A stretch of DNA of 64,000 bases from IMG/VR virus record IMGVR_UViG_3300025009_000052. The stretch is one strand, 5' to 3'. A model generated the notes under the pieces. The model ran no database searches, was not told the DNA's origin, and was given only the letters and a program-made list of their open reading frames with translations. Source of the stretch: a virus. Positions within the stretch are counted from its first letter, which is position 1. The number at the start of each line of letters is the position of its first letter. Shown in pieces: positions 10,473 through 37,042 of this stretch. The position numbers were made by a program, and so were the translations under genes.

Positions 10473-10586
10473 ATGAAAAAAGTTTCTTTAAACAATTGGC
10501 TACCAACAATACTAACTATATTACAAATAGTCCAAATAATATGGCAGTTGTGGATTGGCATATTACCACATTTTACAATAAAATAG
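10473..10586 (+). CDS. Putative 37-aa hydrophobic peptide
   Basis: Hand translation MKKVSLNNWLPTILTILQIVQIIWQLWIGILPHFTIK; fills an intergenic gap. Confidence 0.35.
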   Translation: MKKVSLNNWLPTILTILQIVQIIWQLWIGILPHFTIK

Positions 10587-12156
10587 ACCATCTTTTTTTA
10601 CCACAATCCCAAATTCTGTATAATTCTAAGGACATGGCTAATTCTTTTTCAGTATTAGCCATAGTTCCTACAGCGCCTTTCTTTAAAAGTAAATCTTTTT
10701 TATTGCTTTGTTTGCTTTGTCTAGTCATATCTGGAGCGACGTAACTGTAATCTGGAAGCAAGTGTTCAACAAGCTTAAAACCGCATTTTTCATAAACAGT
10801 CCCTTCTGAGTATCTATTATCTGACCAGGAGATCAATTCTTTATAGCCCATATCTTTAGCATATTCCGTTAGTTTTTTAACTAATCTAGAAGCCCCTCCT
10901 AATATTTGAACGCCGTCTTTAAAAACTAAACGATTTAAAACAAACGGAGTTCCTTCACCCTTCTGTCTATGGTGAATGTTTCCAGTAACTAATCCTAACA
11001 ATTCGTCTTCAAAATAAAGGCCAAAAGCAATTTTAAAAGTGGTTTTACCTTGTATATGATGGTCGTCTAGGAATTTAGCAGCAATTGATCTTTCAACTTC
11101 TTTTAATTCGCATTTTCTAGCGTAGATTTTTCTATCATAAATCCCTAAAACAGACTTGAGATAGTTTTTAACTTGGGAGTTTCTATCTAACCACTCGTCT
11201 TCAAATATAGTTATAAGGCGAATTCCTTGTTCGTTAGCTTGTTTCATTTTGTCGTAGTGATAGTTGTGGTTTTCAGCATGTTTGGGTATTCGTTCCGAAT
11301 GCCAGTGTAATCCATTATACTCAATGGCCAAATTTAAAGATGGGATGTAAATATCAAGTTCTTTACCTTTAGTTTTCCCCTTAAATCTTAATTTTTCAGC
11401 ATGGAACCCAAATGAAGTTATCCAATTGTGGACTATCCCTTCGGTTTTAGAGGTTCCGTTACAAGAACAATGACCACAATCTTGTGAGTAAAAATTAGTT
11501 AATCTATTTTCTCTTATAAAACCACATTTATCATGTATAGCTTTTAATGGAAACCTTTTTATAGAATAAGACTCTTCTATTAGCGTATATCCTAGGGCTT
11601 TTAACTGATCACGAACTTGATCGATAGTTAGGGTTTTTCCGCATTTGTTTCTAGGATCTCCTTGGAATATTTTAGCAAACGCTTTTTCGTAAATAAATCC
11701 GTCAGGTGCCAATATTGTGACGAATGTATTCTGGGAACTTATTATTTTATGAGATTGGTCTGGTAGTCTTTGTTGTAATATATCTATAGGAAGGGAACAA
11801 TCTTCCTTGTGGGCGTCAAACTTACCTCTTATAACCGCCCTATATTGTGGATGTTGATTTAATATCTTTTTAGCGGTTTCTGGGTGTATTTCTAATTGCC
11901 TAATGGTTTGATTTAATTTTATTTTTTGATTATCTTTTAGGGCTTGTTCTAACACTAATAGAAATTTATTTTGTTTGTCGTAATGCTTTTTGCCTAACCT
12001 ACTGACCATATTTATATTGTATTTTTTTATCCAATAGTTAATGTTTTGTCGGTCAATTTTTAACTCAGCCCCTATTTCATTTTGATTATAGCCCTCGGAT
12101 GCCATTTGTGTAATTTTTTCTAAAATTTCTGGTGTTAGTTGTGATTGATAAGACAT
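10573..12156 (-). CDS. Hef-like free-standing homing endonuclease (HTH + PD-(D/E)XK/Vsr-like + C-terminal domain)
   Basis: ELDIYIPSLNLAIEYNGLHWHSE, LITIFEDEW, IYARKC, SWSDNRYSEG, IWDCGK; start at MSYQ with RBS and own TGTGGTATAAT promoter. Confidence 0.8.
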   Translation of the reverse strand: MSYQSQLTPEILEKITQMASEGYNQNEIGAELKIDRQNINYWIKKYNINMVSRLGKKHYDKQNKFLLVLEQALKDNQKIKLNQTIRQLEIHPETAKKILNQHPQYRAVIRGKFDAHKEDCSLPIDILQQRLPDQSHKIISSQNTFVTILAPDGFIYEKAFAKIFQGDPRNKCGKTLTIDQVRDQLKALGYTLIEESYSIKRFPLKAIHDKCGFIRENRLTNFYSQDCGHCSCNGTSKTEGIVHNWITSFGFHAEKLRFKGKTKGKELDIYIPSLNLAIEYNGLHWHSERIPKHAENHNYHYDKMKQANEQGIRLITIFEDEWLDRNSQVKNYLKSVLGIYDRKIYARKCELKEVERSIAAKFLDDHHIQGKTTFKIAFGLYFEDELLGLVTGNIHHRQKGEGTPFVLNRLVFKDGVQILGGASRLVKKLTEYAKDMGYKELISWSDNRYSEGTVYEKCGFKLVEHLLPDYSYVAPDMTRQSKQSNKKDLLLKKGAVGTMANTEKELAMSLELYRIWDCGKKRWSILL

Positions 12157-12295
12157 AAAACCTCTTTTGTTATATAATCTATTATACCACAAACTAATAT
12201 AAAATGATCTATATTTTATAAAAATAATTTAAAATAAAAACGAACCTTCGCGTCTATTTGTTAATTTAAAGGTCGTAATTGGCTAATTGTTAGAA

Positions 12296-12346: not shown

Positions 12347-13735
12347 TTAACTTAATTGACCAGAAATGTTTTCAAAAAGGACGTTTTTCCTTGGCTGATA
12401 GCCCGCGAGGCATTTGAAAGAAAAGTGCGCCTCGGGCAAGCTTAAATCGTGGAGAGCAAGTTTTAATCGTGAATATGGAGCTAATTGGTGAAAACCAAAA
12501 GTATTGGTTTGGAGCAAGAAACCAGTTACAGAACCTGGCTCTTTAAAGCCCAAATCTACGAAACTAGTTGCGCCTGATCCACTAGCTTTTACTCTACCGA
12601 TAAATTTAGCAGCAGCGGCAGTTCCACCATCAGCAGATCGGTATACGTTAAAATATTTACAACCGGTTACGGCAGCGATAGCTAAAGTAACTTTTTGGCC
12701 AGCAGTAGGAGATACTTGAGCAGAAGATGTAGAAACACTCTCGCCTCTTTCGTTACAAGCGGTAGCTTTATAGTAATAATCTCCAGCAGCCAAAATAGAA
12801 GCTGCATCGTTAGCTGCGGTAGGAGTTACTGTAGCAGGGGCAGCAGGTGAGCCGGCTCTACTTCTAGCAGGAGCGGTTTTACCAGAAAGAAATCTTGAAG
12901 GTTCTAAACTAATTGTACCGTTGGATGTCCATTGGGTTCTTAGGTTAGCGCCCATAGCTTCCTGAGCAGAACCAGCAAGCATGATTCTTTCTTTTGCGTG
13001 AGCAATTTTATTATAAGCAGAAAGAGAAATCGGGTCTAGCATCAATTTATCAGCAGAACCATGATTCATAGCACTTTTAACAGCTCCGTCCTCGATAAAC
13101 GATTCGGTCAAAGTACCGTTAACTGCGATAACTACTGTTTGGTTTGATCCGTATTCTGCAAACATAAGGTCTTGAGTGTTAGAAAGAGAATCTGAAAGTC
13201 TAACTTGCATATCGACGCCTTGCATTCCAGGTACGTCAGCGATTACAGCAGGGTTTCCATCGAAAACACCTGAGTTAGAAAAATCAGCTTGTCCTCTAAA
13301 ACCGTCAAATTCGATATCAGCAGATAGTTTTATAGCAGCGTCGTTTCCGGCTCTGGTTTCAGCTTTTTGGCCATCAAATGCGGCAACTAAATTAGCAGCA
13401 ACACTTACTCTACGAACTGTAGAATAATAAGCCATAGGTATGGTGATTCTTGAATAATTAGAAGTATCCTCTTCGCCAATTCCACCCTCATACTGAGCAG
13501 ATCCGCCGAAAATTCCGTAATCTAATTGACGGTTAAATTGTACCAAAGTACCTTTTGCGTCTTTAACTGAGAACATTTTTTGCAATTTAATTTGTTTGTC
13601 GTCAAAACAAACATTTTCCATAACTGGGGATAGATCTTCAATCTGAAGAGCCGATCCTTGTTGTAAAGAACTTGGTGCTGCGTTGTAACTACCAGCTTCC
13701 AAGGCTTTCATAAGGTCATTCAATTGGTTTACCAT
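12347..13735 (-). CDS. Major capsid protein (SPO1/Twort-like)
   Basis: LMKALEAG...GSALQIEDLS N-terminus, 462 aa, C-terminal Ig-like insertion, follows the scaffold. Confidence 0.9.
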   Translation of the reverse strand: MVNQLNDLMKALEAGSYNAAPSSLQQGSALQIEDLSPVMENVCFDDKQIKLQKMFSVKDAKGTLVQFNRQLDYGIFGGSAQYEGGIGEEDTSNYSRITIPMAYYSTVRRVSVAANLVAAFDGQKAETRAGNDAAIKLSADIEFDGFRGQADFSNSGVFDGNPAVIADVPGMQGVDMQVRLSDSLSNTQDLMFAEYGSNQTVVIAVNGTLTESFIEDGAVKSAMNHGSADKLMLDPISLSAYNKIAHAKERIMLAGSAQEAMGANLRTQWTSNGTISLEPSRFLSGKTAPARSRAGSPAAPATVTPTAANDAASILAAGDYYYKATACNERGESVSTSSAQVSPTAGQKVTLAIAAVTGCKYFNVYRSADGGTAAAAKFIGRVKASGSGATSFVDLGFKEPGSVTGFLLQTNTFGFHQLAPYSRLKLALHDLSLPEAHFSFKCLAGYQPRKNVLFENISGQLS

Positions 13736-13744
13736 GTAATCCTC

Positions 13745-14407
13745 CTATAAAAGATGTTTTATTAATTCAATTGATTGAGTGTTATTATAATAAGTATCAA
13801 TAGCTTCTCTGTCTTTCTTCTCTAACTTTTCAGATCTGATTTTTTCACAAAGAATGTTTGAAATTTCTTTCTGACTTAATTGACTTGCATCTTTTTTAGT
13901 AGGAGCTACGGTAGCTTCAGCTTCGGTCTTTTTGATGTATTCAATTTTAGTAATTGCTTTTCTTTGTGGAGCTTCTTTCTTAATAAATTTTGTAAAAGCT
14001 TCGGTCAGTTTTTCCAAATTTTTCTTAAGCTCAGTGTTTTCTTCTTTAAGAGACTCTATCTCAGCTTTGGCTAATTTGTCTTCTTTCTTTTCAATTTTAA
14101 CTTCCTTTACTTCTTCAGTTTTATTGATAGTGTCAGATCCAAATATAGTCTTTTTAATAGCTTGATAGTGTGCGTCTTGCTCAGCTTTGCTCATTGATTG
14201 GTAGAGTTTGTCCATTTCGGCAAAATCCTCTTCGTCATAATCAAATTCACTTTCTTGTTTAGCTACTTCTTCTGTTTTTTGAACTTTAACTTCTTCAGTT
14301 TTAGGTTCTTCTATTTTAGCCTCTTGTTCGGCTTTAGCTAAAGATTCAGCAAATTGAGTTTCTACCTCACTAATGAGAGCTGCCATTTCTTGTTCTGAAT
14401 ATTTCAC
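13745..14407 (-). CDS. Probable head scaffolding protein
   Basis: E/K-rich coiled coil directly upstream of the capsid gene; many LxKA/xxKT motifs. Confidence 0.7.
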   Translation of the reverse strand: MKYSEQEMAALISEVETQFAESLAKAEQEAKIEEPKTEEVKVQKTEEVAKQESEFDYDEEDFAEMDKLYQSMSKAEQDAHYQAIKKTIFGSDTINKTEEVKEVKIEKKEDKLAKAEIESLKEENTELKKNLEKLTEAFTKFIKKEAPQRKAITKIEYIKKTEAEATVAPTKKDASQLSQKEISNILCEKIRSEKLEKKDREAIDTYYNNTQSIELIKHLL

Positions 14408-15262: not shown

Positions 15263-16417
15263 ATGGATACTTTATTAGGTACTTATTTGCATGGCATTGG
15301 GTCTACTACCGATTTGGATTCAAGTGGTGAAAGAGTTAAAATAGAAGGAATTGATATATCTTCAGCTACACAGGATGGAACGATAAACTTTGAGCATAAG
15401 TCCGAAGAGCCATCGCAGATTGTTGGGAAGATCCTTGAGGTTAAAAAAATATTGAAAAAAGACGATTGTGAAAATGAACACCATGAGTATTTTTGGAAAA
15501 AAGCCGGTGAAAGGCCCTATCTATATGTTGCAGGAGTATTGTTCGACAAGTTCAATCACCCCGGAGCTATCAGTATAGCAGCTATGTTAAAGTTCGATCA
15601 GTTAACTGATAAGAAAAATACCAAACATGTTGTTAATTTTAGTATTGAAGGTTCTAGACTAGATAAGAAAGGTATTTGGATAGAAAAATGTATAATGAGA
15701 AAAATAACTGTAACCACCGCTGCATGTAATAAAATGTGTATAGCGGAATTACTAGAGAAACCGTCAAAAACCAAACTTATATCGAAAGAGTCATTATTTG
15801 ACATTTTTAAGAAATGTGAGGAAGTGGAAAGTAATTTAAACAAATCCGACACTCAACCCAAATTTAAAAGTAAACTATCGTTTAAACTAAAGCCAACAAT
15901 TTCACCTAAAGAAAATTTTAAGCCACTAACCCCTATGTCTACCCCGGCAAAAGAGGGCAAACCTATAATACCTAAAAGAACAATATCCTCTCAATCAAAT
16001 AAAGAATGGAAGTTAGGAGACAGGATAGTTCCGTCAAAAACCACTAAACCAAAAACTGGTAAGGATATTTATAGTAATCCTAATACTTGGAAATCTGAAG
16101 GAAAAAAGAAAAAATTCTATATGTCTAATATTCAAAAGGCCTTAATAGCTAGCTGTAGTGACTCTGCCCCATCTAACTTAACAGGTATGTCGGCTCTAAC
16201 TAAAGAATGTTTCGGTAAAAAACAACTTGATAAAATTTTTAAAACACTGTCAGACAGTGCTTTTGAAAGGTTGGACAAAAAAGAAGATTTAGTTAAGTTT
16301 ATTTCGGAAAAGTTACCAAAACTTAATGAAAACGAGGTTTTAGCTATCGCTAAGGCTGTAGCCTATATTAAGGAAAAAAAGAACGAATTGAAATTATCCG
16401 AAATGATTAAGGAATAA
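15263..16417 (+). CDS. Prohead (maturation) protease with C-terminal extension
   Basis: GIGSTTDLDSSGE, INFEH, IVGKI, FSIEG (His/Ser of caudoviral prohead proteases). Confidence 0.82.
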   Translation: MDTLLGTYLHGIGSTTDLDSSGERVKIEGIDISSATQDGTINFEHKSEEPSQIVGKILEVKKILKKDDCENEHHEYFWKKAGERPYLYVAGVLFDKFNHPGAISIAAMLKFDQLTDKKNTKHVVNFSIEGSRLDKKGIWIEKCIMRKITVTTAACNKMCIAELLEKPSKTKLISKESLFDIFKKCEEVESNLNKSDTQPKFKSKLSFKLKPTISPKENFKPLTPMSTPAKEGKPIIPKRTISSQSNKEWKLGDRIVPSKTTKPKTGKDIYSNPNTWKSEGKKKKFYMSNIQKALIASCSDSAPSNLTGMSALTKECFGKKQLDKIFKTLSDSAFERLDKKEDLVKFISEKLPKLNENEVLAIAKAVAYIKEKKNELKLSEMIKE

Positions 16418-16419
16418 TT

Positions 16420-16821
16420 ATGGCTAAGGAAGGAAGGGATTCTAATCGAGTTGCTGCTATTTTAATTAGAGACTGTCTGGACAATATATTAATGGGCCAA
16501 AGGAACGATGGTAGTGGTTGGGCTAATCCTGGCGGTCATTTGAAAGTTGGCGAACAGTATTTTGAAGGAGCGCTAAGGGAACTTAAAGAAGAAACTGGGC
16601 TAGACGCTGTTGAGTTAAAACTAATTAAAATGCATAAATACGGGAAAATATTGGTTTATTTGTTTGAAGCTAAAGTTGGTATAGAACAAGATATAGACAC
16701 ATCTGGTGACCCGGATAAAGAATTTTCCACCCTAAAATACTGTGACCCTAACGATATTAAAGAAGATCTACACGTTCCTTTAGAAAGGAATGCTGTTATG
16801 CAATATTGGATGGAGAGTTAA
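16420..16821 (+). CDS. Nudix hydrolase
   Basis: Nudix box GGHLKVGEQYFEGALRELKEETGL. Confidence 0.93.
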   Translation: MAKEGRDSNRVAAILIRDCLDNILMGQRNDGSGWANPGGHLKVGEQYFEGALRELKEETGLDAVELKLIKMHKYGKILVYLFEAKVGIEQDIDTSGDPDKEFSTLKYCDPNDIKEDLHVPLERNAVMQYWMES

Positions 16822-19105: not shown

Positions 19106-20101
19106 TTAAACCTCGCCCTCTACAAAAACCTTTCTGCACCTTACTTTTGTAATACACTTACTGTAAATTACCATGTCTTTTACTTTTACCCTACACTTCA
19201 ACAACTTACCCTGATTGTAGTTAAGTGCTAATTCTGGGGTTGGAGATAAGTGCAAGCCACCGCCACATTCTCTGTTTTTATCTGGGTCAAAATCTGGGCA
19301 ATCAATTGTTTTACCAATTTCATATTTAATTTTACCTGTTTTAAAGTCTGTTAGGTTAGTTGGGCTAACCGATTTATAGAGAATTATTTCACCGTCTACT
19401 ACGTTTTCTGGGTAAACCTCTTTAAAGGTTTTTAAATTATGCTCTACTTGTTTTTGTCTAACGACAGTAACCGTTTTTACTTTTTTAAATTTAATATTTT
19501 GTCGTAATATTATTACAGAGTTTAAACTAGCTTCTAGTTTAACAGATGTTGATTCTACGGTAATAATACTCATTTCGGTAGCTGTAACCGTTGAGTTATC
19601 GCAAGCTCTAACCGTTGAGTTACCGTAAGCTGTAACCGTTGAGTTACCGTAAGCTGTAACCGTTGAGTTACCGTAAGCTGTAACCGTTGAGTTACCGTAA
19701 GCTGTAACCGTTGAGTTACCGTAAGCTGTAACCGTTGAGTTATCGCAAGCTCTAACCGTTGAGTTACCGTAAGCTGTAACCGTTGAGTTACCGTAAGCTG
19801 TAACCGTTGAGTTACCGTAAGCTGTAACCGTTGAGTTATCGCAAGCTCTAACCGTTGAGTTATCGCAAGCTCTAACCGTTGAGTTACCGTAAGCTGTAAC
19901 CGTTGAGTTATCGTAAGCTGTAACCGTTGAGTTATCGCAAGCTCTAACCGTTGAGTTACCGTAAGCTGTAACCGTTGAGTTATCGCAAGCTTTTCTGATT
20001 TCAATAACTTCTGAGCTTCTAATCTCTATTTCAGTAAATTCTTTGAAAGTTAAGGGTAAATTGTCTAAGTCTTTTTGTGTTTTAATCGTAATTATTTTCA
20101 T
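19106..20101 (-). CDS. Octapeptide-repeat (beta-solenoid) protein with C-terminal ECGGGLH domain
   Basis: 17 x A(Y/C)(G/D)NSTV(T/R); C-terminal YK...CGGGLH...KVRC domain common in phages. Confidence 0.8.
   Translation of the reverse strand: MKIITIKTQKDLDNLPLTFKEFTEIEIRSSEVIEIRKACDNSTVTAYGNSTVRACDNSTVTAYDNSTVTAYGNSTVRACDNSTVRACDNSTVTAYGNSTVTAYGNSTVTAYGNSTVRACDNSTVTAYGNSTVTAYGNSTVTAYGNSTVTAYGNSTVTAYGNSTVRACDNSTVTATEMSIITVESTSVKLEASLNSVIILRQNIKFKKVKTVTVVRQKQVEHNLKTFKEVYPENVVDGEIILYKSVSPTNLTDFKTGKIKYEIGKTIDCPDFDPDKNRECGGGLHLSPTPELALNYNQGKLLKCRVKVKDMVIYSKCITKVRCRKVFVEGEV
19583..19990. repeat. 24-bp tandem repeat, 17 copies
   Basis: Unit GTTGAGTTACCGTAAGCTGTAACC with few variant positions and no spacers. 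Confidence 0.95.
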
Positions 20102-22620: not shown

Positions 22621-24489
22621 ATGGGTAGGGGAATCAAAATACTAATAGATAAAGACCGACTAATAGATTTATATCTAAACCAAAACAAGACTATACCCGA
22701 AACAGCTAAGGAATTGAATTGTGGCCACACTAGTATTATAAGATATCTCAAGAAATACAATATTACTAAACCCTTAGAGTTAAAACACCAAAATGTTTCG
22801 AGATCAAATCGAAGAATAGATCATCAAAAGTTAATTGACGACTATTTGGTTAATAAAATGCTTACTCCTGAAATAGCTAAAAAATATAACACCAATGTAT
22901 CGTCTGTTGCAAGGATATTGTCCGATCACAATGTTGATGTGGACGATCGATATAGGCAATACCGAAAAAAAGTAGCCGACGACAATATTCCCTATAAAGA
23001 TATTATTGAATTGTATATTAATCAAAATAAGACAGCTTTAGAGGTGGCAAATATTCTTAAAATAAGTGAATTTAAAATTAGAAAGTGTATGGATAAAATA
23101 GGCACAAAGAAAACGAAAGAAATGTGGACTAAGTTAAATACTAATAAAGACACGCAATGGGATTTACTAAAAAATCCAGAATGGTTTTACCAAAAATATA
23201 TTTCAGAAAACAAGACTATAATTGAGGTTGCTAAGGAGGCTGGGTCAACCATTAGAATGGCTAGGCTTTATCGGATTAAGTATGGTTTTAAAAAGAGTAC
23301 CGAGCAGAAGGGTAGTTTTTTACAAAAAAATAACAGTAATGTTAAAGATAAAGAATGGCTATATCAAAAGTATATTGTAGAGAATACTAGAATTATCGAA
23401 ATAGCCGAACAGGAAAATATTAGTATGTGGTTGGTTGAATATTATATTCATAAGTTTAACCTACACAAAAGCCATGCGCTCAAAAGAAAGCTTAGGATAG
23501 AAACTAATATAAGCAGGGGGAACCAGACTTGTATTTTTGGGCAAACGATCGATGAATTGGCGGAACAATACAAATTATCACATTCTTTTACTTGGTCTTT
23601 GTTTAAGAGGAATTCCTTCTCCACCTATGAAGAATTACACTCTTTTTTGGCTAAAATCAGTATAGATAGATTTACTAGTTTAGAACTGTATACCAATAAG
23701 CTTTTGGGGCTAGAGAATTATAATCAAAAAGCACACCTCACATTAAACTATAAGCCGGATTTCAAAATAAGTGACATTTTATATTTAAACGTTGATGGTT
23801 TGTATTGGCACTGTGAAAAAGAGGTGGACGATAGTTACTATCATTTTACCATGAGACAAAAATATGAGGAGTTAGGTCTGCAAATTCTCCAATTCCGTGA
23901 AAACGATATTTATAAAAATCCTGAAATAGTCAAGTCTATTGTGAATAATAAGACAAATACTAATATTGCAACTATCTACGGTCGTAAAACTGAAATTAAA
24001 GAAGTAAAAACTGAGGACGCTAAAGAATTCCTAACTAGGTGCCATTTAAAGGGCTATTTTTCGGGAAAACACATAGGTCTGTATTATAATGGCAATCTTA
24101 AGAGTGTGCTAAGTTATAAGATTTACGATAAAAACACCCTTAAAGTTGAAAGATTCTGTACAGATTTGAATACTAGAATTATTGGTGGGTTCTCTAAGTT
24201 ATTAAAATATTTAGAAAGAAATGAGAGTTTTAAAGAAGTTTATTATTGGGTTGATTTAAAGTATGGAACTGGTAAATTTTTAGAGCAATTGGGATTCCAA
24301 CACTCTCACGATACTTTAGGTTGGGAATGGACGGATAAGTTTGATACCTTTAATCGTAGAAGGTGTCGGGCTAATATGGATGAGAGGAAGCTTAAAGAAC
24401 GTGAATATGCCAATGAATTAAAATGGTATAAGATTTACGATGCTGGTCAGAGGTTATTTGTGAGGAAATATGTACAAACTACTACTTAA
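22621..24489 (+). CDS. Second Hef-like homing endonuclease with repeated HTH modules
   Basis: Repeated LYQKYI..NKT..EIA units; KPDF...NVDGLYWH, IYGRKT, YWVDLKYGTG, IYDAGQ. Confidence 0.78.
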   Translation: MGRGIKILIDKDRLIDLYLNQNKTIPETAKELNCGHTSIIRYLKKYNITKPLELKHQNVSRSNRRIDHQKLIDDYLVNKMLTPEIAKKYNTNVSSVARILSDHNVDVDDRYRQYRKKVADDNIPYKDIIELYINQNKTALEVANILKISEFKIRKCMDKIGTKKTKEMWTKLNTNKDTQWDLLKNPEWFYQKYISENKTIIEVAKEAGSTIRMARLYRIKYGFKKSTEQKGSFLQKNNSNVKDKEWLYQKYIVENTRIIEIAEQENISMWLVEYYIHKFNLHKSHALKRKLRIETNISRGNQTCIFGQTIDELAEQYKLSHSFTWSLFKRNSFSTYEELHSFLAKISIDRFTSLELYTNKLLGLENYNQKAHLTLNYKPDFKISDILYLNVDGLYWHCEKEVDDSYYHFTMRQKYEELGLQILQFRENDIYKNPEIVKSIVNNKTNTNIATIYGRKTEIKEVKTEDAKEFLTRCHLKGYFSGKHIGLYYNGNLKSVLSYKIYDKNTLKVERFCTDLNTRIIGGFSKLLKYLERNESFKEVYYWVDLKYGTGKFLEQLGFQHSHDTLGWEWTDKFDTFNRRRCRANMDERKLKEREYANELKWYKIYDAGQRLFVRKYVQTTT

Positions 24490-25681
24490 AACAATCGAAA
24501 AGCAAAAAGAAGATAAACTCAATTTTATCAACAATTTACATAAAAGTATTGGTGAAAAACCCAATGCTATTTTAAATCGACAACCTCACTTTATATTTTC
24601 CACTGAAAATCCCAGATACCCTACTAAAACCAAAATGACTCATGAGGATGTCTTAGATCTTTTGAGAGACAAGGGTTATGATGCTCACGAAATGTATGGG
24701 GTGGATGAGATTGAGGGAAAATATGGAGATAAAGAAAAAAGTATTTTAATTCACAATCCACATATTAGATCAATACCTCATTTACACCAATTAGTTCAAG
24801 CACTTGGACAAGAATCAAGCCTATATTCTTCAGGACTAAACAGCGAACTTCACTTCCATTCAGGCCCAAATGCCGGTCAACATATGAAAGGAACTGGAAC
24901 AGATATTCCTAAAGTTAAGCCAAATGATAATTATTCCGAAACAAAAGACGGTATGGTTTTCCAACACAACATGGATCACGAAAATCTATATCCGATGTCC
25001 GAATCTATGTTAAAAATGAAACCTACTAAGATTAACAAATCAGAGTTTTATGCTAAAAATGGATTTTATTTATGTAAAAATCAGGATAAGCATCCTTTAG
25101 AAGACCATAATCCAGATACTAAATTGATCCACTACTCCCCCCAACAAGGATTAACCGAATTGGATCCAGAACATCACGGGGTCAGGGGAATAGGTTCCGA
25201 AGCTAAACAAGGTAAACCGGAACATCCAATGTCTTTCTTTTATTTAGAAAATACTGAGCCAGAACATATTGTAACATCTGGATCTAAAAGTAAATACATT
25301 ACTTCTTTAGGTAGTAAAAAACTTTATGATATTGGCAAAGATAGTCATAATTTGTGGAGTCAAGCTGAAGAAATTGCTCAGAAAAGACAGACCAATCCTG
25401 GTGTAGTTAGAAAAGAAGATTTCCACAATGCTATTAGAAATGCTGGTTACCATGGAATCTATAATTCTAGCTTAGGCGATACCATGAAAAATGTGGTCGG
25501 GATGTTTGAAAAAATGCCAATTGAAAAAGAAGTTCCAATGCATCCGATGGATTTTAAAAGAACTACTAGTTTTGATCACAACAGTAATAAACAGATTCAC
25601 AGTAGTGCAGAACAATACGCTAATGAATTTGGACACCACGATCCTAAGTTTTTGGCAAAATTGAAAATGTCCTTGAGGTAG
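24470..25681 (+). CDS. Putative internal head protein: SAM-lyase-like + ART-PolyVal-like domains
   Basis: FIFSTEN..H..VL..LR..EGKYG..EKSIL..GQESSLY; then LIHYS...LDP...FFY...LYD...AGYHGI; LHKS/INKS junctions. Confidence 0.55.
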   Translation: MYKLLLKTIEKQKEDKLNFINNLHKSIGEKPNAILNRQPHFIFSTENPRYPTKTKMTHEDVLDLLRDKGYDAHEMYGVDEIEGKYGDKEKSILIHNPHIRSIPHLHQLVQALGQESSLYSSGLNSELHFHSGPNAGQHMKGTGTDIPKVKPNDNYSETKDGMVFQHNMDHENLYPMSESMLKMKPTKINKSEFYAKNGFYLCKNQDKHPLEDHNPDTKLIHYSPQQGLTELDPEHHGVRGIGSEAKQGKPEHPMSFFYLENTEPEHIVTSGSKSKYITSLGSKKLYDIGKDSHNLWSQAEEIAQKRQTNPGVVRKEDFHNAIRNAGYHGIYNSSLGDTMKNVVGMFEKMPIEKEVPMHPMDFKRTTSFDHNSNKQIHSSAEQYANEFGHHDPKFLAKLKMSLR

Positions 25682-25683
25682 TT

Positions 25684-28491
25684 ATGGCAGTTAGAAAAAT
25701 AAAACACCCTATATTGAATCCCGATAAATCTATTAACCATACAAAAGTTAGGAAACATATTAAATCCGACCTGTTTACTCCCGAGGAATATGTCAATATG
25801 CTTTCTGGGCATTATCATGACGACCTTACTGCCGATGCGGTTCCAGAGCCATATTTAAAAAACAAACACAATACACCAGAAAACAACGCAAAGGTTTTAA
25901 ACAAGTATCTAAAAAGATTAAAAAATAGCGGTAAAAAGTCTGAATATGGGAACCCTAATTCAGAAAATATCAATAAACTAATTAGGCGATATAAGCTACC
26001 TAGTTCCACTATACATAAGTTTATTGAGAATCCAAAGTCTTTTGGAAGTAATCCTAAAGATAAGTACTGGACACCTCAAGTATCGGAGATAAATCCAGAT
26101 AGCTTGGAAAAAGAGCACCTATATAAAATCGCAGCTAAACATCCTGATAAGTTAAGTGATTATATTGACCATCAACATTTTGACGATAATTTAATTAAAA
26201 ACCATTTACTCCACAATAACAAATCTCTAGGTGGTTTAGATAGTGGTGTTATTTCAAAACTGGCCGCTAATCCAAATTTACACGGTGGAGATGCTTTAAA
26301 AATCTTAGAAAGTTCGCCTACCCATCAGATTAGTAGTGAGACGGCAGGGAGGTTATTAGATAAAATACCTGAAAACGAACGTCACGAATTTATCGATAAA
26401 ACCTTAGGTATAACTGGTGGACACCACAATGACGAATTTGATGAAGAAAGCCTGAGAGAGGGTGGGGTAAGTGAAGAAGATATTCAGAAGGCTAAGGATA
26501 ATTGGAATGAGGATGATAATTGGGACGCATGGAGAGATGGAATTAATCATAGCCCACAATTAAGTGCTAAATTTGCTGGTTACGATAAATTAAAAGACCA
26601 TCAAATAGACCATATTATGAGACATGGAGATACTGACTCTAAGATCAAACTGTACCACAATGAAAAAATAGATCCTAAATATGGCTCTAAAATGTTGGAA
26701 AAATGGTATAACGACGATAGTCATCATGGTTATGACTCAGAACATTTGAAGGATTTTTTAAAAGAAGAAAATAGAGATTTTGTTTGGGAAGATTCTTTTG
26801 AAGAGGGTACTGAAAAAGCTAGGAATGATTATTCGATAGGTGAATATCTTAGTGATAATAGAAACGATGGTATGAGTGATGAGGATATTGCGGAATATGA
26901 AGAAAATGGGAATCTCCCAGATCATGTCTATGAGGGCTATGATCAAGTTATAGACGAAAGAGCTCAGGATTATATAGACGGCATTATGGACGATCATTTT
27001 GATAATTCTTTAGAAAACGAAGATTATATTCCCAATCATATTAAAGAACACTCACCGATTGTAAAGCAGCTTAGAGAAAAAAGAAGAGCTAGGGAAGATA
27101 ATAAAGCCCTAGAACAGGCCCAAGAAGAAGAGGATAACAATAAAGACTTTTTGGACCAGTCTGTACCAAAAAGAACTCACGAACATGAATACGGCGAAAA
27201 TCTACACCAACATGAAATGCTTAAGGATTATGCAGATCAAAACGGTGGTTCTATTGATGTAGGTAAAATGCACAAAATGTTTCCTAATTTAAAAGATACT
27301 TGGAAGCAAATATTTGGAAACCAAGGGAAGCTTTCTTCTAAGGAAATTCAAGAAAAGATAGACCAAATTCCTAAAACCAAATACAACGTATCCTATCGGA
27401 ATTGGGATGGAATGCAGAGAACCAATGGTAATGAGCAGGTGGTTTTTAGATTAGACCATAGTCCAGAATCTTTATCTAAGCTAAAGGAAGATCCTGAATT
27501 GTACGATACTTTTAAGAAAGTACAAGAGGTTTCTCAAAGAAGCGGTCACCCAACTAACTTAAATACTATTGGATGGGCTCGGGTTGACACAAGTAATCCA
27601 AAACACTGGCTTACAGATGAATTACAAAGCGACTTCGGGTCCACTGCTAGGGATTATTTAAAAAGAGAAGGAGCCCATGATAAGGCTGGACACATGGATA
27701 AGATAATTCAACACCATAAAGATTGGCGTGAAAATTTATTAAATTTAGTTATCAAAGAAGCTAAAAAACACGGTGTTGAGAAGGTATCTACCCATTCTCC
27801 TGAAAGTAAAGCCGCCCATACTGGAGCCGATAAAGCCCATTCTGTCTACAATGATAGTTACAAGAAAGTACCTCGTAAGATGGGTTTTTTACCATCTAAA
27901 GCTGATAGCTTACCATTAGATGACGAAGGTAGGGAAGTTTTCATGAGTAAGAAGGGAAATGCAGATGATTTTGAAAATCACCAAAATGCTTTTAATTTTC
28001 ACAATAATATGTACCACGCTCACCATAGTAATAATCTAGATCAAGGTGCTTTTGACGATCCTCATATGGGTACTAGATTTAGTTTAGCAAATAGCCATAA
28101 AACATTAGCTACTCAGCATTTAGATAGGATGCGACAAATTGATCCTACTATTAAATACAATAGTTTAAAAAATCAATTAAAACCCGAAGCTATTAGTTTT
28201 AACTCAAAGCCATATGCTGGTGAATATAAAAACAGGGCTGACGAAAATCTATCTGCTAATAAGGTAGAGAGCCATAGTCATGACCTCCTATTAGAAAACA
28301 AACCTATTGTAGCCGAATCTCACCCAGCCCATACCCTTGACCTAAGACCTAAAATAATGCAAAAAACTATGCAAATAGCTGATTTATTGTTAAAAACGGA
28401 ATTAGCTTACTTCTTAGGCAAACAAAAGAATTTAGAAGTTAACCATTTGCTTAAGAATGTGGTAGAATTAAGGAAGAGCTTAGGTTATTAG
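25684..28491 (+). CDS. Large putative internal head protein: helical repeats + GNAT-like domain
   Basis: KLAANPNL-type repeats; IGWARV...DELQSD...LLNLVIKEAKKHGVEKV...RKMGF; C-terminal MQKT/LLKT/LRKS. Confidence 0.5.
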   Translation: MAVRKIKHPILNPDKSINHTKVRKHIKSDLFTPEEYVNMLSGHYHDDLTADAVPEPYLKNKHNTPENNAKVLNKYLKRLKNSGKKSEYGNPNSENINKLIRRYKLPSSTIHKFIENPKSFGSNPKDKYWTPQVSEINPDSLEKEHLYKIAAKHPDKLSDYIDHQHFDDNLIKNHLLHNNKSLGGLDSGVISKLAANPNLHGGDALKILESSPTHQISSETAGRLLDKIPENERHEFIDKTLGITGGHHNDEFDEESLREGGVSEEDIQKAKDNWNEDDNWDAWRDGINHSPQLSAKFAGYDKLKDHQIDHIMRHGDTDSKIKLYHNEKIDPKYGSKMLEKWYNDDSHHGYDSEHLKDFLKEENRDFVWEDSFEEGTEKARNDYSIGEYLSDNRNDGMSDEDIAEYEENGNLPDHVYEGYDQVIDERAQDYIDGIMDDHFDNSLENEDYIPNHIKEHSPIVKQLREKRRAREDNKALEQAQEEEDNNKDFLDQSVPKRTHEHEYGENLHQHEMLKDYADQNGGSIDVGKMHKMFPNLKDTWKQIFGNQGKLSSKEIQEKIDQIPKTKYNVSYRNWDGMQRTNGNEQVVFRLDHSPESLSKLKEDPELYDTFKKVQEVSQRSGHPTNLNTIGWARVDTSNPKHWLTDELQSDFGSTARDYLKREGAHDKAGHMDKIIQHHKDWRENLLNLVIKEAKKHGVEKVSTHSPESKAAHTGADKAHSVYNDSYKKVPRKMGFLPSKADSLPLDDEGREVFMSKKGNADDFENHQNAFNFHNNMYHAHHSNNLDQGAFDDPHMGTRFSLANSHKTLATQHLDRMRQIDPTIKYNSLKNQLKPEAISFNSKPYAGEYKNRADENLSANKVESHSHDLLLENKPIVAESHPAHTLDLRPKIMQKTMQIADLLLKTELAYFLGKQKNLEVNHLLKNVVELRKSLGY

Positions 28492-28538
28492 CTATCTATT
28501 AAATCTTAATCTATAATCTATTGTGAGGATTTATTAAA

Positions 28539-31500
28539 ATGGATAAGTTACAGGATTTACTAGAAAAAATAGAAGAAGTAATAGAGCAAGATCTTCAGAA
28601 ACAACATATTTCCGATCTCTTCAAAGGTGGTAAAAAAGCTAATATCGGCGAAACCAGAACTTGGGATGGAAAAGACTATATCAAAACCCAAGATGGTTGG
28701 GACTATGTTGCTCAGGGGCATGAGCCAAAAACTAATGAGCAGCCTAAACAACCTCCAGAAGTTCAAAAACCAGTTTCAGATATTAAAACTCCTCATGAAG
28801 TAAAATCTCCAGAGCCTCAAGTATCAAAGCCCCAGGAAGAAACAGAACAAACGAAAGAAGTTGTTGAGTCACCAAGACAAGAAATTTCCGAAACCTCAGA
28901 AGAAAAACAAGAAGAATATGTAAACGCTCGTAAATCCAAGGTTTCTAACTTGGGTAAAGATATAAAAGGCTCAGCTAGACATAAAAGACAATATAGCTCT
29001 ATTAAAGATATGGGAACTGCCGAAATATCCGATATTACCGTTAAAAACCTATTGAAACAATTCCCTATCAATCTAATAGACGATGTAGCTAAGGACAATC
29101 CAATTATCCCCTATGTAGCCAACCAAATTTTAAATAGATTTCCTGCTAGTCCAAAACACGAAGTTCAAAAAGAAATGTATTTGGAAACTTTTGAATATGT
29201 TAGAAATAGAGTTCAAGAGCTGTCTAAACAAAAAGACTTATTATTTACCGACGTTATTTCAGCTATCCAAAAAGAAATTGTTGCTAAGATTAAAGAAAAC
29301 AGGGCTTCTGAAAACTATGTAAGAGGTTCCGACGACTTCTTAGTTCCCTATGTAAATAAAACCTTAAATTTTAGAAAAACAAAGGGCTCTGTTGGTCAAG
29401 ACGTTGAGGATTTAGTAAATGCTTTTGCTAGAACACTACCTGAATCCGATCAGGATGGGTTAAGTGTTGGTTATATGCTTAAGGAAACTAGACAAGCTGC
29501 TATGGCTGAATTTTATACCGAAGAGGGCGTAAGAAAAATAAAAGACTTGGTGGAAGGAAAGTCTTTAAGTAAAGTTTTTGAAATAGTCTCAGAAGGTAAA
29601 AAATCTAAAAAGTTTTCTGTAGCCGAGATCTATACTCAAGACGCTAAAAGAACTGGCCCAGATACTAAATTAACTACCGAAGAAGACCAAGCTAATTTTA
29701 TTATAAAATCCTGTGAAATGAAGGGTTTACAGTGGGGAAATAGTGTTACTGACGAAGAAAGAAAACACCATTTGAAAATGTCTTCCGAAGCCTTTAAGGA
29801 TTTGGCAGATATATTAGACTTACCCGAAAAAATGATTTCATTTAATGGTAGGTTAGGGTTAGCAATTGGAGCCAGAGGCCACGGAACTGCTTTAGCTCAT
29901 TATGAACCAAAAGAAATTGCTATTAATTTAACTAGGTCGAAAGGTGTCGGATCATTGGCTCATGAATGGGGCCATTTTTTAGACAATATTTTATCCAAAA
30001 CTCATGGTGTAAATGCTCACCCAGAAAATCAATTCTTATCCGAATCTGCTGTTTGGAATATGGGTGATAAATCTCCGGTTCAAGAATCTATGAAAGAATT
30101 GGTTAAATCAGATGCTTGGAAAAGCTTTAAAGACTCTACCCGTGATGCTCTTAATGATTTAGCTAAACACGGAATTAAGGAAAAGCCTAGCTATTGGATG
30201 TCACCTAAGGAATTATTCGCCAGAGCTTTTGAAGGATATATTAGTTATAAATTAAAATCCAAAGACAGAGAAAATACATATTTATCTGGTGGCAGCGAAG
30301 GTTTAATGTGGTGTACCAAGGAACAAAAAGAAAAATTGGCACCATATTTCGATAAATTTTTTGAAGAATTGAAAAAATCAGATCATATTAAGAAGGCTAT
30401 GGATTTAGAAAACGATTTGCAGAAAGGAAGTCTTCAAAGTAAAATGGGTAATCCCAAAAAACAATTAAGACCTCAAGAGACTAATACTATGATCAATTGG
30501 GTATCAGAGCAGCAACCTAGGGAAAATATCCCAGAAGCCACCAATAAAGCCAAACAGAGGTTTTTTCATAAGCTACATTCTCAAACAGAAGTAAAAAAAC
30601 ATCCTAAAACTGGGGAGAGAATGTTTTTAATGCATAGGGGTACTGAGACTGATTCGGACACACACAATACATCACTATCATCTTGGACGCCAAACTACAA
30701 TATAGCTAATGATTTTGCCGACAGTATTGACGACGATGGTACGAAAAGTACAGTTCATTCTGCTTGGATACCAGAAAGTGCTATTCATAATTACATACCG
30801 AATTCAATTGATAGAGATATTAAAGAATACGATGAGTTAATCCCGAGAGAGCAGGAGTACATCGTTAAGCCACATAATTTTTTACATGCTAATTGGCAAA
30901 AATTACCTAACAAAGAAGGACTTGATCGTAAGATAAACTGGAAACAGCGAATATATGGTAAAGGGGGTAGGCTGGCAGCCGGCGAAAATATAGAAAATGA
31001 TTTGACTAAATCTAAAATTAACGCAGATGAAGAAGGTGAAATAATTAAGAAAAATAAAGAAAAAGCTGAGGCCAAAAGAAAACACAAATTTAAAGCTGCT
31101 CAGTGGACGCACCCAAATGGACACCCAAGATGTATTATTTGTGGTGACGAAGAAAGGATTGATGGATATTGTAGTCCATCTTTAGATAAATCCCAAACTA
31201 AATGGCATAAAAGAAACGGTATTTTACAGAAAAGTTGGAGAAAAGCTATTGCAACAGGAGCCGCCCTATCAACAATGTTAGTGGGAGCCCACAATATGGG
31301 TCAAAACAAAGAACCTGGCAGGCAACCTTCTTCTGTTGATCAGTCTCAAATAAACCAAGTAAAAATTGCCCCAGACCATGGTTTAAAATCTGACATGTTA
31401 CATAATATTAAGAATAATCCTATTGTTGAAAACAATGTTTTACCTAAAGGTAGGTTTGGACAATATAGCCTGTCTCAAAACGCTATTAAAAGTGTTTTTA

Positions 31501-31781
31501 ATAAAAACCAAACATTAGGTGAAAGGTATGGCCATTTATTAAAACTTTCCCCCAATGAATTAGATCAACAACTAAAAAACGATCCTAATTTAGACCATCA
31601 ATTGGCAGATTCTCATTGGCATAATTTACAGAGTGAGTTTGGAAACAAACCTGACCATATAGCCCATGCTTGGTATCAAAATCCAGAGAATACCAGACAG
31701 GAAAGCCAACTTAAGGGAGGTGATTCTAATTTTAATAATCACTTCTATGTGTCCAAAATCATTAAGAATCTTAAAAAATAG
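28539..31781 (+). CDS. Large polyvalent protein: DdrB/LPD1 zincin + R-S-E ADP-ribosyltransferase + lysozyme-like domain
   Basis: LQWGN...LAIGARG...AHYEP...SLAHEWGHFLD...ELFARAFE; HRG...SSWT...EQEYIV; FGQYSL...AHAWYQ...YVSKI. Confidence 0.75.
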   Translation: MDKLQDLLEKIEEVIEQDLQKQHISDLFKGGKKANIGETRTWDGKDYIKTQDGWDYVAQGHEPKTNEQPKQPPEVQKPVSDIKTPHEVKSPEPQVSKPQEETEQTKEVVESPRQEISETSEEKQEEYVNARKSKVSNLGKDIKGSARHKRQYSSIKDMGTAEISDITVKNLLKQFPINLIDDVAKDNPIIPYVANQILNRFPASPKHEVQKEMYLETFEYVRNRVQELSKQKDLLFTDVISAIQKEIVAKIKENRASENYVRGSDDFLVPYVNKTLNFRKTKGSVGQDVEDLVNAFARTLPESDQDGLSVGYMLKETRQAAMAEFYTEEGVRKIKDLVEGKSLSKVFEIVSEGKKSKKFSVAEIYTQDAKRTGPDTKLTTEEDQANFIIKSCEMKGLQWGNSVTDEERKHHLKMSSEAFKDLADILDLPEKMISFNGRLGLAIGARGHGTALAHYEPKEIAINLTRSKGVGSLAHEWGHFLDNILSKTHGVNAHPENQFLSESAVWNMGDKSPVQESMKELVKSDAWKSFKDSTRDALNDLAKHGIKEKPSYWMSPKELFARAFEGYISYKLKSKDRENTYLSGGSEGLMWCTKEQKEKLAPYFDKFFEELKKSDHIKKAMDLENDLQKGSLQSKMGNPKKQLRPQETNTMINWVSEQQPRENIPEATNKAKQRFFHKLHSQTEVKKHPKTGERMFLMHRGTETDSDTHNTSLSSWTPNYNIANDFADSIDDDGTKSTVHSAWIPESAIHNYIPNSIDRDIKEYDELIPREQEYIVKPHNFLHANWQKLPNKEGLDRKINWKQRIYGKGGRLAAGENIENDLTKSKINADEEGEIIKKNKEKAEAKRKHKFKAAQWTHPNGHPRCIICGDEERIDGYCSPSLDKSQTKWHKRNGILQKSWRKAIATGAALSTMLVGAHNMGQNKEPGRQPSSVDQSQINQVKIAPDHGLKSDMLHNIKNNPIVENNVLPKGRFGQYSLSQNAIKSVFNKNQTLGERYGHLLKLSPNELDQQLKNDPNLDHQLADSHWHNLQSEFGNKPDHIAHAWYQNPENTRQESQLKGGDSNFNNHFYVSKIIKNLKK

Positions 31782-35629: not shown

Positions 35630-37042
35630 ATGGATAAAATTTATGTTAGTATTAATGGTGATAATATCGGTTCTGAACTTGGCCAAGCTATTGCTTCTGA
35701 CGATCACGAAGGTCTGGGCAAATTATCCCAATCAATTAAAGATAACCATTCTGAAATAGACCAATGGGTTGAATCTAAACAAGGTCGAGTGATAGTGTCG
35801 TCTGGGGACGAATCAATATTTGAGATTCCAATTGAAGCTGCTCAAGAATTAGAAGGAATTCGTGATAGATATAAAGAGATGTCTGGCCATAGTTTAACTA
35901 TTGGCGTTGGTTCAACAATGAGCGAGTCTTCCAAGGCTTTAATCTACGGTAAGATGAATGGAAAGAACCAAATTGTTGAGTATTCACCAGAAGTAGATAA
36001 ATTTTTAGCAGAAAACAATGTAGATGAAGATTCTGAAATTCCAGAAGATGAAAATATTCAGGAAAATGCAGATTCCTCAATTGAGGACGACTCCGATGTT
36101 CCAGAAGAGTCAGAAGATAGTGATTTAGAAGGTATACCTGAGGAAGATAATATTCCAGCAAGCGAAGAAGTCTCTGAAGAAGTCTCTGAAGAAGATATGT
36201 CCGAAGGTGATACTGTTCCAGAAGATGAAGTTAAGGAAACTGGTTTTGACGAGGAATCTACGGAACCAGAAATTGACAATATTGATGAGTCCACAGAAGG
36301 CGAAGAAATGCCTGAAGAGGATGTGTCCGAGGAAGGTGAAGAAAATTCAGAGGAAAATTTAGAAGATATATCTGAAGAAGCTCCAGAATTATCCGAAGAT
36401 GACGAGAATTATTTCGATATAAATCCAGACGAAATAGAAGAATTAAAACCCGAACACGTTGCTAATGGTGACTTAACATATCAAGGCGATCAACAAGAAA
36501 ATTCAAAAGACGAAGAGGACTATGTTGGCCCACAAGATGAGGATGGTTTAGAGGGAGACTCTGAGGGTGAAGAGATGCCTGAAGAAAATTCAGAAGAAGG
36601 TGGCGATAGATATGATATGTTATCTAATATGATACATGGCCATTTATCTGACCAACAAGACCCTAATGAATCCGAAGAAATGTCAGAAGGCGAAGAAATA
36701 CCTGAAGATATGCAAGACGGTCAAGAAGATAATAGTTCTGAATTAAAACAAGATATTTTCAATGCATTGCAGGGTTTTAAGCAAAATAAGGCTATGTTAG
36801 AAGACGCTAAAGAAAATAATCCAGAATTATATCAATCTCTCATTACTATGCTTAGGTCTATGATTCAAATGGCCAAACAACTAAATGGTTATGATCCAGA
36901 AGAAGATATGCAAGATGCCGATGGTCGTAGTGAGATTGAAGAAAGTTTACCTCATGCTGGGGAGTTTCAAGATGATTCTGAAATGCCAGAAGATGCTTTA
37001 CAAAACCCAGATGACGTAAAAAAAAACCCCTTAAATCAATAA
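35630..37042 (+). CDS. mCpol-like palm domain + acidic disordered linker + helical C-terminal domain
   Basis: YVSINGDNIG...GRVIVSSGDE...LTIGVG.TMSES.KALIYGK.NGKNQI. Confidence 0.7.
   Translation: MDKIYVSINGDNIGSELGQAIASDDHEGLGKLSQSIKDNHSEIDQWVESKQGRVIVSSGDESIFEIPIEAAQELEGIRDRYKEMSGHSLTIGVGSTMSESSKALIYGKMNGKNQIVEYSPEVDKFLAENNVDEDSEIPEDENIQENADSSIEDDSDVPEESEDSDLEGIPEEDNIPASEEVSEEVSEEDMSEGDTVPEDEVKETGFDEESTEPEIDNIDESTEGEEMPEEDVSEEGEENSEENLEDISEEAPELSEDDENYFDINPDEIEELKPEHVANGDLTYQGDQQENSKDEEDYVGPQDEDGLEGDSEGEEMPEENSEEGGDRYDMLSNMIHGHLSDQQDPNESEEMSEGEEIPEDMQDGQEDNSSELKQDIFNALQGFKQNKAMLEDAKENNPELYQSLITMLRSMIQMAKQLNGYDPEEDMQDADGRSEIEESLPHAGEFQDDSEMPEDALQNPDDVKKNPLNQ

Follow-up and report, generated by a model that had tools for sequence, protein, structure and literature searches.

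A predicted T3-type SAM lyase domain coupled to a divergent ADP-ribosyltransferase fold in a multidomain protein of a large Mx1-like myovirus

Can a phage bring into its host an enzyme that destroys S-adenosylmethionine (SAM), so that SAM-dependent defenses are met at the moment of DNA entry? The phage SAM lyases characterized so far (T3, Svi3-3, and Orf1) are small and free, and that of T3 needs to be expressed after the DNA has already been exposed to restriction and bacteriophage exclusion (BREX). The question is raised by a gene in IMG/VR virus record IMGVR_UViG_3300025009_000052, of which we analyzed a stretch of 64,000 nucleotides (the window). An open reading frame of 403 residues at 24470..25681 on the plus strand had been given a preliminary description, made from the letters alone, as a SAM-lyase-like domain fused to an ADP-ribosyltransferase (ART)-like domain in a probable virion protein that acts at injection. 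For the first half of the protein, sequence profiles, the predicted fold, and the conserved active-site residues agree with that description.

The start at 24470 is supported by the homologues, which have the N terminus MYKK in common. There are 73 metagenomic homologues, 37 to 69% identical to the 403-residue protein and nearly all 390 to 415 residues long. An AlphaFold2 model built on 40 homologues (mean predicted local distance difference test score [pLDDT], 83) divides the protein into five parts, all given here on the plus strand. An N-terminal leader, residues 1 to 26 (24470..24547), consists of a predicted helix (2 to 26) that ends in L-H-K-S (23 to 26). Domain 1, residues 39 to 168 (24584..24973), has eight strands and two helices in the fold of the T3-type SAM lyases. 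It is followed by an interdomain linker, residues 169 to 212 (24974..25105), in which pLDDT falls below 50 at residues 188 to 205, by domain 2, residues 213 to 365 (about 211 to 365; 25106..25564), with an ART fold, and by a C-terminal helical extension, residues 370 to 403 (25577..25678; helices at 372 to 387 and 392 to 402). All strings quoted in the preliminary description occur in the translation of 24470..25681: LHKS (23 to 26), FIFSTEN (41 to 47), THEDVLDLLR (57 to 66), EGKYG..EKSILI (82 to 94), GQESSLY (113 to 119), NYSE (154 to 157), and INKS (188 to 191) in the first half and LIHYS (219 to 223), LDP (231 to 233), FFY (256 to 258), LYD (285 to 287), GYHGI (326 to 330), and VGMF (343 to 346) in the second.

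When the predicted fold of domain 1 was compared with known structures, T3 SAM lyase (gp0.3; PDB 8BB1 and 7OCK) was the sole strong match. Foldseek against the PDB returned T3 SAM lyase 8bb1_E as the best match (E = 5.7e-4; probability, 1.0), and in an exhaustive VIA search of 48,161 chains, T3 SAM lyase 7ock_L (Z = 10.3) was the only one with a Z score of at least 8. Further VIA comparison gave Z scores of 10.9 for 8bb1_E (128 of 147 residues aligned) and 10.7 for 7ock_J, with 127 to 128 of 147 to 152 residues aligned overall at a root mean square deviation of about 4 Å. The next folds reached at most 5.6, with Svi3-3 at 5.3 to 5.6 and PII proteins at about 5; the Clostridium botulinum SAM-AMP lyases 9GAB and 9GAD were absent from the best 50 matches of the fold searches, an absence that does not speak against SAM-AMP as the substrate. 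Among viral models (BFVD), the matches included annotated SAM hydrolases and proteins of about 130 residues from T7-like phages. Svi3-3 (6ZM9) and the C. botulinum and phage SAM-AMP lyases (9GAB; candidate AcrIIIB4) resemble domain 1 in belonging to the PII-like superfamily and in their catalytic Glu and Gln, but these enzymes are trimers with active sites at the subunit interfaces, whereas the C-terminal strands that complete the barrel of domain 1 are of the T3 type. In complex with MetK, the T3 enzyme forms a monomeric barrel of nine strands, in contrast to the trimeric Svi3-3 (bioRxiv 2023.02.27.530186), and a self-contained monomeric barrel suits a domain embedded in a larger protein. We had also considered a trimer of residues 27 to 190, for which prediction of a three-copy complex gave a score of 0.01; that expectation was wrong, the T3 SAMase barrel being monomeric in its complex.

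Likewise, the order of motifs that had been matched by eye to T3 SAMase was recovered by profile-profile alignment. In hhalign, 168 family N-domains aligned with 40 T3-like SAMases at E = 5e-4 (a single comparison) over 129 collinear columns spanning T3 residues 2 to 151, and thus the whole T3 protein, pairing HFIFS with YVLVSA, sHe.vl..L with rh..lv..L, GkY...EkS with GcY...EeRT, and GQES with eQDC. An hmmsearch of the family profile against T3 SAMase as the lone target gave E = 9e-4. Single-sequence hhalign of profile A1 with T3 SAMase was uninformative, and profiles were needed on both sides. The alignment places G83 (24716-24718), Y85 (24722-24724), E89 (24734-24736), and Q114 (the first residue of Q114-E115-S116, 24809-24817) on T3 G55, Y57, E68, and Q94, so that the G-x-Y, Glu, and Gln residues that bind the substrate are kept. 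Among the 168 relatives, these four are conserved at 95, 96, 99, and 99%, respectively, and S91 and E/D115-S116 are as conserved. The equivalents in Svi3-3 are its few conserved SAM-binding residues, T3 E68 corresponding to Svi3-3 E69 (Guo et al., PMC7877911). The catalytic Gln is Q94 in T3 and Q104 in Svi3-3 (PMC7877911, bioRxiv 2023.02.27.530186), and a T3 E68Q/Q94A double mutant is inactive (Andriianov et al., bioRxiv 2023.02.27.530186).

Of 40 homologues, 29 matched the Pfam family PF23780 (S-AdoMet_lyase) along almost the full length of its profile (best E, 1.5e-10), and P0009 (30.0), P0068 (29.7), P0074 (31.9), and P0213 (34.1) lie above its gathering score of 28 bits; T3 gp0.3 scores 143 bits on this model. 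The phage's own genome gave no match to PF23780, and PDB sequences gave none by phmmer or with profiles A1 and A3. Several features of the window copy count against its being a SAM lyase of the T3 kind. The 403-residue protein matched nothing in Pfam and PHROGs, and nothing in PF23780 even at E = 10. Peculiar to this copy are a six-residue insertion at 72 to 77 and a Ser at residue 125, a place taken by His in 158 of 168 relatives. As for differences from the T3 enzyme, the hairpin from Y85 to E89 is seven residues shorter than that of T3 by hhalign, identity to the T3 enzyme is about 12 to 18%, and the residues by which T3 SAM lyase binds MetK (the N-terminal tail, Q103, and T104) are not recognizable here. 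On balance, the assignment of domain 1 as a distant T3-type SAM lyase is supported by the profiles and the model, and cleavage of SAM is its predicted activity.

The reading of the second half as ART-like held for the fold, but the proposed tie to ART-PolyVal is weak, and the catalytic Asp of that clade is replaced by His. Modeled alone, domain 2 reaches a pLDDT of 92.9. This model matched 75 of the 48,161 chains at a Z score of at least 2, and the best 50 all belong to the ART superfamily, with Z scores from 6.8 down to 3.3: MbcT (6.8), a domain of the cyanophage A4 pre-ejectosome (6.4), diphtheria toxin homologues (5.2 to 5.6), ParT (5.1), AcrIF11 (6KYF; 4.8), and, lower, PARPs, RES toxins, Arr, Tpt1, DarT, pertussis toxin, and exotoxin A. 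We assign the ART fold because this list is uniform, although each Z score is middling. The latter speaks against the assignment, as does a Foldseek search of domain 2 against the PDB, which gave no significant match. For the full model, the best BFVD matches include proteins annotated as "Large polyvalent protein associated domain-containing" (E = 5e-8) and, at rank 2, an "ART-PolyVal-like domain-containing protein" (E = 1.8e-7), which is a weak lead; the ESM Atlas gave a further weak lead toward ART-PolyVal.

In the ART-PolyVal clade, the active site is formed by His in strand 1, Tyr in strand 2, and Asp in strand 5 (Iyer et al. 2017, PMC5512222). The motif order of domain 2 (LIHYS / FFY / KYI..L / GYHGIY / VVGMF) fits that of genuine ART-PolyVal sequences (VVYHG / GFYFT / VYLKI / GYDGII / YVVF), with a strand 1 His, an aromatic-Tyr pair in strand 2, G-Y-x-G in strand 5, and a hydrophobic strand 6; the likeness as such had been pointed out in the preliminary description. 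Statistical support for this likeness is weaker: hhalign of the C-domain with seven genuine ART-PolyVal domains gave E = 0.0038 and a probability of 9%, GYHG on GYDG being the confident stretch. Of the H-Y-D triad, H221 and Y258 (99% each) probably take the first two positions; at the third, H328 is aligned with the Asp of GYDG. Of 176 sequences, 144 (82%) have His here and 3 have Asp, with an occasional Q, S, K, or L. Nor did Pfam ART-PolyVal (PF18760) match any of 40 members (E ≤ 1), any of 39 giant relatives (E ≤ 0.001), and thus any of the 79 relatives scanned, or the phage's own genome (E ≤ 10). Comparison of the C-domain profile with the ART-PolyVal region of RPP1 as a single sequence (hmmsearch and hhalign) was uninformative, no near-length match came from a homologue search that started from the ART region of RPP1, and tblastn of the C-domain against the phage database gave none even at E = 5.

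Domain 2 shares with the ART-PolyVal/Tox-ART-HYD2 clade (PF18760; PMC5512222) the ART fold and a habitat in giant multienzyme phage proteins. In contrast to that clade, it adds invariant E265, Y276, D287, and D291, a helical insert, and a C-terminal helical tail. H221, S223, Y258, E265, Y276, D287, and D291 are conserved at 96 to 99% and G326 and G329 are near-invariant, a pattern that looks like a live active site. Domain 2 probably binds nicotinamide adenine dinucleotide (NAD+) through H221 and Y258. We conclude that domain 2 is supported, at the level of the fold, as a divergent ART that is distantly ART-PolyVal-like and has His where the catalytic Asp would stand; the data do not support placing it in Pfam ART-PolyVal.

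How widely, and in what company, do these two modules occur? A HMMER scan of 1.84 billion representatives yielded 503 relatives, 298 of them at E ≤ 1e-10. Among 150 listed clusters of these relatives, 60 have both domains, 42 the lyase alone, and 48 the ART alone; where both are present, the lyase precedes the ART in 48 of the 60 and the two are directly adjacent in 35. The proteins that carry the modules range from stand-alone forms of 131 residues up to giants of 2000 to 2963 residues, and both modules are found as small proteins of 131 to 222 residues. Domains added in the giants are GNAT, NUDIX, mCpol, RelA/SpoT, LigT, VTC, kinase-like, and LPD38. P0098 is one of the giants in which mCpol accompanies the lyase and ART modules. 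Two unrelated enzyme folds in one protein, a neighboring gene with LPD1, and the context of a structural gene block are what is expected of polyvalent proteins, and the distribution of the modules is the polyvalent-protein pattern of Iyer et al. 2017. In 185,579 prokaryote genomes, the family is nearly absent, with a single match on a 3.3-kb contig, and it therefore belongs to virulent phages.

By tblastn against the phage database, Myxococcus phage Mx1 alone matched, through its lyase module, and it is the only cultured phage with this module. Its 559-residue protein (WNM70344; L001:5185-6861) carries the module at residues 273 to 414, with G-x-Y, E-x-S, and GQES retained, and is encoded directly upstream of the tail sheath. 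The module is flanked by P-A-[ST]-K-E repeats, and F-G-K-S-E stands near the C terminus. A positional homology was considered and dropped, as the Mx1 559-residue protein is unrelated to the 433-residue protein upstream of the sheath in the window.

The setting of the gene is that of late structural genes. The complete virus record (155,481 bp with direct terminal repeats) comes from groundwater, and it has turned up repeatedly in metagenomes of groundwater and soil. The phage is a large Mx1-like myovirus: its tail sheath is 43% identical to that of Mx1, which is a contractile-tailed phage, and its major capsid protein (12347..13735, minus strand) is 51.7% identical to that of Mx1 and more distantly like SPO1-like capsids. 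The gene for the 403-residue protein lies in a co-oriented block that runs from a 135-residue gene through a 278-residue tail-fiber-like gene and a homing endonuclease to the 403-residue gene itself, whose 5' end overlaps the endonuclease by 20 nucleotides and which stops 2 nucleotides before the next gene. Two giant genes follow (25684..31781, plus strand; 935 and 1080 residues); they belong to the same operon, they carry the same hydrophobic-x-K-S motif as the 403-residue protein, and the second has the Pfam polyvalent-protein domain LPD1. The giant proteins of the block are of the LPD1 and SLT kinds, and farther along come genes for virion structural proteins and for the tail sheath. This order is maintained in relatives at about 50% identity, which lack the homing endonuclease. 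The endonuclease (22621-24489, plus strand; 622 residues, phrog_3339, helix-turn-helix repeats), which separates the 278- and 403-residue genes, would thus be a recent insertion, as relatives L006 and L005 are without it.

That domain 1 is bounded by LHKS and INKS, as the preliminary description remarked, proved to be a real signal, since hydrophobic-x-K-S(-E) marks module borders throughout the family and is enriched in scaffold-like proteins of two phages. In the disordered linker, I/L/M-x-K-S-E is nearly invariant (here I-N-K-S-E, residues 188 to 192, 25031-25045, plus strand, our proposed prohead-protease site), and a similar L-x-K-S ends the N-terminal helix. In 73 large relatives, [LIMVF]xK[SN][EDS] was observed 162 times versus 42.5 expected, at the borders of lyase and ART modules. 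The acidic scaffold-like protein that adjoins the capsid gene (13745..14407, minus strand) contains seven copies of hydrophobic-x-K-[AT]-E versus 1.9 expected, and that of a diverged relative (L006:3963-4682) contains eight copies of the motif versus 1.8 expected. The conserved capsid N terminus LNDLMKALEAG holds the motif once in both phages (L-M-K-A at residues 8 to 11 in the window; capsid gene of the relative, L006:2571-3953). We note hydrophobic-x-K-[SAT]-E as a candidate prohead-protease consensus for this phage group. Scaffolds and capsid N termini are classic prohead-protease substrates, and for that reason we read the motif as a head-protease site. In T4, the head-protease site is L/I-x-E, and here the motif is hydrophobic-x-K-S/A/T(-E). 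A 384-residue candidate head maturation protease (15263-16417, plus strand) has a weak match to phrog_1028 (E = 1e-6) and is our candidate for the enzyme that would cut at the motif; directly after it comes a NUDIX hydrolase (16420-16821, plus strand), and the pair is conserved in relatives.

From synteny and motif together, it is plausible that the 403-residue protein is prepackaged and acts at injection. It may be carried in the head and split into leader, lyase, and ART, with residues 1 to 26 as a candidate capsid-targeting or propeptide segment. The proposed logic is that of T4 Alt and internal proteins and of the P1 Dar proteins, which are packaged in the head and injected to act against the host or its restriction: the protein would be made late with a leader at its N terminus, be trimmed by the head protease, enter with the DNA, and act before any phage gene is expressed. 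T4 Alt is also an ART (PMC5512222), but it is an R-S-E ART and unrelated in sequence. A structural parallel to domain 2 in this respect is the cyanophage A4 pre-ejectosome (PDB 9k3a chain B, residues 1419 to 1607; 124 to 125 residues aligned), in which the matching domain sits in a packaged ejection protein; the structure paper is silent on ADP-ribosyltransferase.

Conceivably, the 403-residue protein is instead a late cytoplasmic enzyme that stays out of the virion, where it could stop methylation, block superinfecting phage, or remodel metabolism, with the motif as a feature of linkers or coiled coils. Some of our data point this way and away from packaging. The motif is a short one, and in a proteome this rich in Lys its loose form is frequent, occurring by chance in 29% of random 47-residue stretches; N termini in the structural block show a modest excess of it (12 of 34 versus 23 of 151); and the copies in the scaffold could merely be internal repeats. 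Packaging is deduced from context, with no family of packaged or internal virion proteins in Pfam or PHROGs detected for the 403-residue protein, the literature yielded no virion proteomics, whether on Mx1 or on the match to a "structural protein" of a Flavobacterium phage, and no RNA data set was listed among the sequencing runs. Nevertheless, the strict motif is about 4-fold enriched and stands at module borders in proteins that are otherwise unrelated. It is nearly invariant within a linker that is variable and disordered, and it recurs in the scaffold-like protein and capsid N terminus of two diverged phages. The conserved order of the structural block and the presence of the domain 2 fold in a solved packaged ejection protein (cyanophage A4, Z = 6.4) also favor packaging, and we consider a purely cytoplasmic role unlikely.

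The analysis shows the identity of the domains, their conserved residues, the modular makeup, the conserved gene order, and the enrichment of the motif. On this basis, we propose the following course for packaging, cleavage, timing, and enzymatic activity. The 403-residue protein would be synthesized late, together with the structural genes, and probably taken up into the prohead. There, the head protease would cut at hydrophobic-x-K-S motifs, both after residue ~26 and around residue 190 of the linker, freeing the two enzymes as separate polypeptides that would leave the capsid with the DNA. Domain 1 would then cleave SAM to methylthioadenosine and homoserine lactone by means of its G-x-Y, E-x-S, and G-Q-E-S elements. 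Lowering SAM at entry might blunt SAM-dependent defenses such as type I and III restriction and BREX, while the ART domain may modify a host target or consume NAD+. As a whole, this reading of a packaged, protease-cut effector with two enzymes, a SAM lyase and an ART, ejected with the DNA seems to us evenly balanced between being right and being wrong.

The proposed destruction of SAM is complicated by the phage itself, which encodes an N6/N4 DNA methyltransferase (59120-59908, plus strand; PF01555, E = 8e-48) and a C5 DNA methyltransferase (55565-56455, plus strand; PF00145, E = 5e-53) in the same genome as the SAM-lyase-like domain. Both are SAM dependent and thus sit awkwardly with a wholesale loss of SAM, which tells against the proposal. 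Possibly, a packaged dose is active only briefly at entry, or the methyltransferases act before SAM is exhausted. Otherwise, the true substrate may be SAM-AMP or another sulfonium compound.

On the last of these accounts, the substrate of domain 1 would be SAM-AMP, a signal of type III CRISPR systems, or another sulfonium compound rather than SAM, which would make the protein an anti-CRISPR-type signal degrader like the candidate AcrIIIB4. SAM and SAM-AMP lyases have only the catalytic Glu and Gln in common, specificity coming from an extended AMP-binding site, and the T-loop is placed differently in the two enzymes (PMC12255297). The hairpin from Y85 to E89, shorter in domain 1 than in T3, is the counterpart of the T-loop, and SAM therefore stays a candidate substrate, with SAM-AMP as the alternative. 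The retention of two SAM-dependent methyltransferases would be easier to understand if the SAM pool were spared. In addition, fusion to an extra domain is also seen in the known phage SAM-AMP lyase, and mCpol and other nucleotide-signal enzymes accompany the lyase module in giant relatives. In contrast, the fold match is specifically to T3 SAM lyase, with a Z score roughly twice that of Svi3-3, the Pfam matches are to PF23780, a family built on T3, and the conserved G-x-Y contacts the ribose and sulfonium of SAM in Svi3-3 (PMC7877911). Because the fold is specifically of the T3 type and G-x-Y is conserved, we regard SAM as the more likely substrate and a SAM-AMP lyase as rather improbable.

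Mono-ARTs without the catalytic Glu, such as those of the PARP10 type, are active. With this in mind, it is very unlikely that one or both domains are catalytically dead and have a structural or cargo-packing role in the inner head or the ejection apparatus: the replacement of the ART catalytic acid by His (occasionally Q, S, K, or L), the H125S change and insertion in the lyase domain of the window copy, and the middling ART matches would fit such a role, but polar residues of active-site type are near-invariant in about 170 relatives per domain (99% for E89, Q114, H221, Y258, Y276, and D287), pure scaffolding is rarely so conserved, and both modules also exist as stand-alone proteins.

Other genes of the window are recorded here as side observations. 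A mCpol (minimal CRISPR polymerase) domain protein is encoded a few genes downstream of the 403-residue gene (35630-37042, plus strand) and is kept in all three phages compared (the window, L005, and L006). The homing endonuclease next to the gene has a paralogue of 539 residues at 10573-12192 (minus strand), and there is an endonuclease of the GIY-YIG type at 43707-44675. The large terminase (1632-5108, minus strand; 1158 residues) contains a LAGLIDADG homing endonuclease segment at residues 445 to 628 that is intein-like. A GroEL-type chaperonin is encoded at 5613-7376 (minus strand; phrog_5725, E = 4e-93). A 331-residue protein (19106-20101, minus strand) consists in part of about 20 tandem octapeptides NSTV(T/R)A(Y/C)(G/D); it matches phrog_15773 and, weakly, baseplate and tail-lysozyme families.

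In conclusion, both kinds of component, SAM lyases and the ART folds of phage proteins, are already known; what is new here is that a T3-type SAM lyase is used as a module, putatively cleavable, in multienzyme phage proteins that are late and probably packaged. In T3, the lyase is a free early protein of 152 residues, the first to be made after infection, whereas here it is an internal module of a multidomain protein encoded in a late operon. The 2017 catalogue of 131 polyvalent-protein domains contains no SAM-degrading domain (Iyer et al., PMC5512222), and a SAM lyase as a module of polyvalent, virion-associated, or packaged proteins was not found in the literature searched. Extended to the family of about 500 representative clusters, the idea takes a more tentative form, which we would rate somewhat short of an even chance: enzymes strung like beads on a string and joined by hydrophobic-x-K-S-E protease sites, made late as a polyprotein that would become free enzymes in the capsid, here a T3-type SAM lyase and an H-Y-H variant ART, to be ejected with the DNA.

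For the study of these phages and enzymes, the family offers an ART-fold clade in which His replaces the catalytic acid and, in its compact T3-type lyase domains, a set for probing how specificity for SAM or SAM-AMP is determined. The candidate head-protease motif could predict packaged cargo across a group of uncultured large myoviruses. If the proposed course is true, this would be the first prepackaged SAM lyase. Borne by the capsid, it would act from the first second of infection, and the timing problem that SAM-dependent restriction and BREX pose would be solved without early gene expression.

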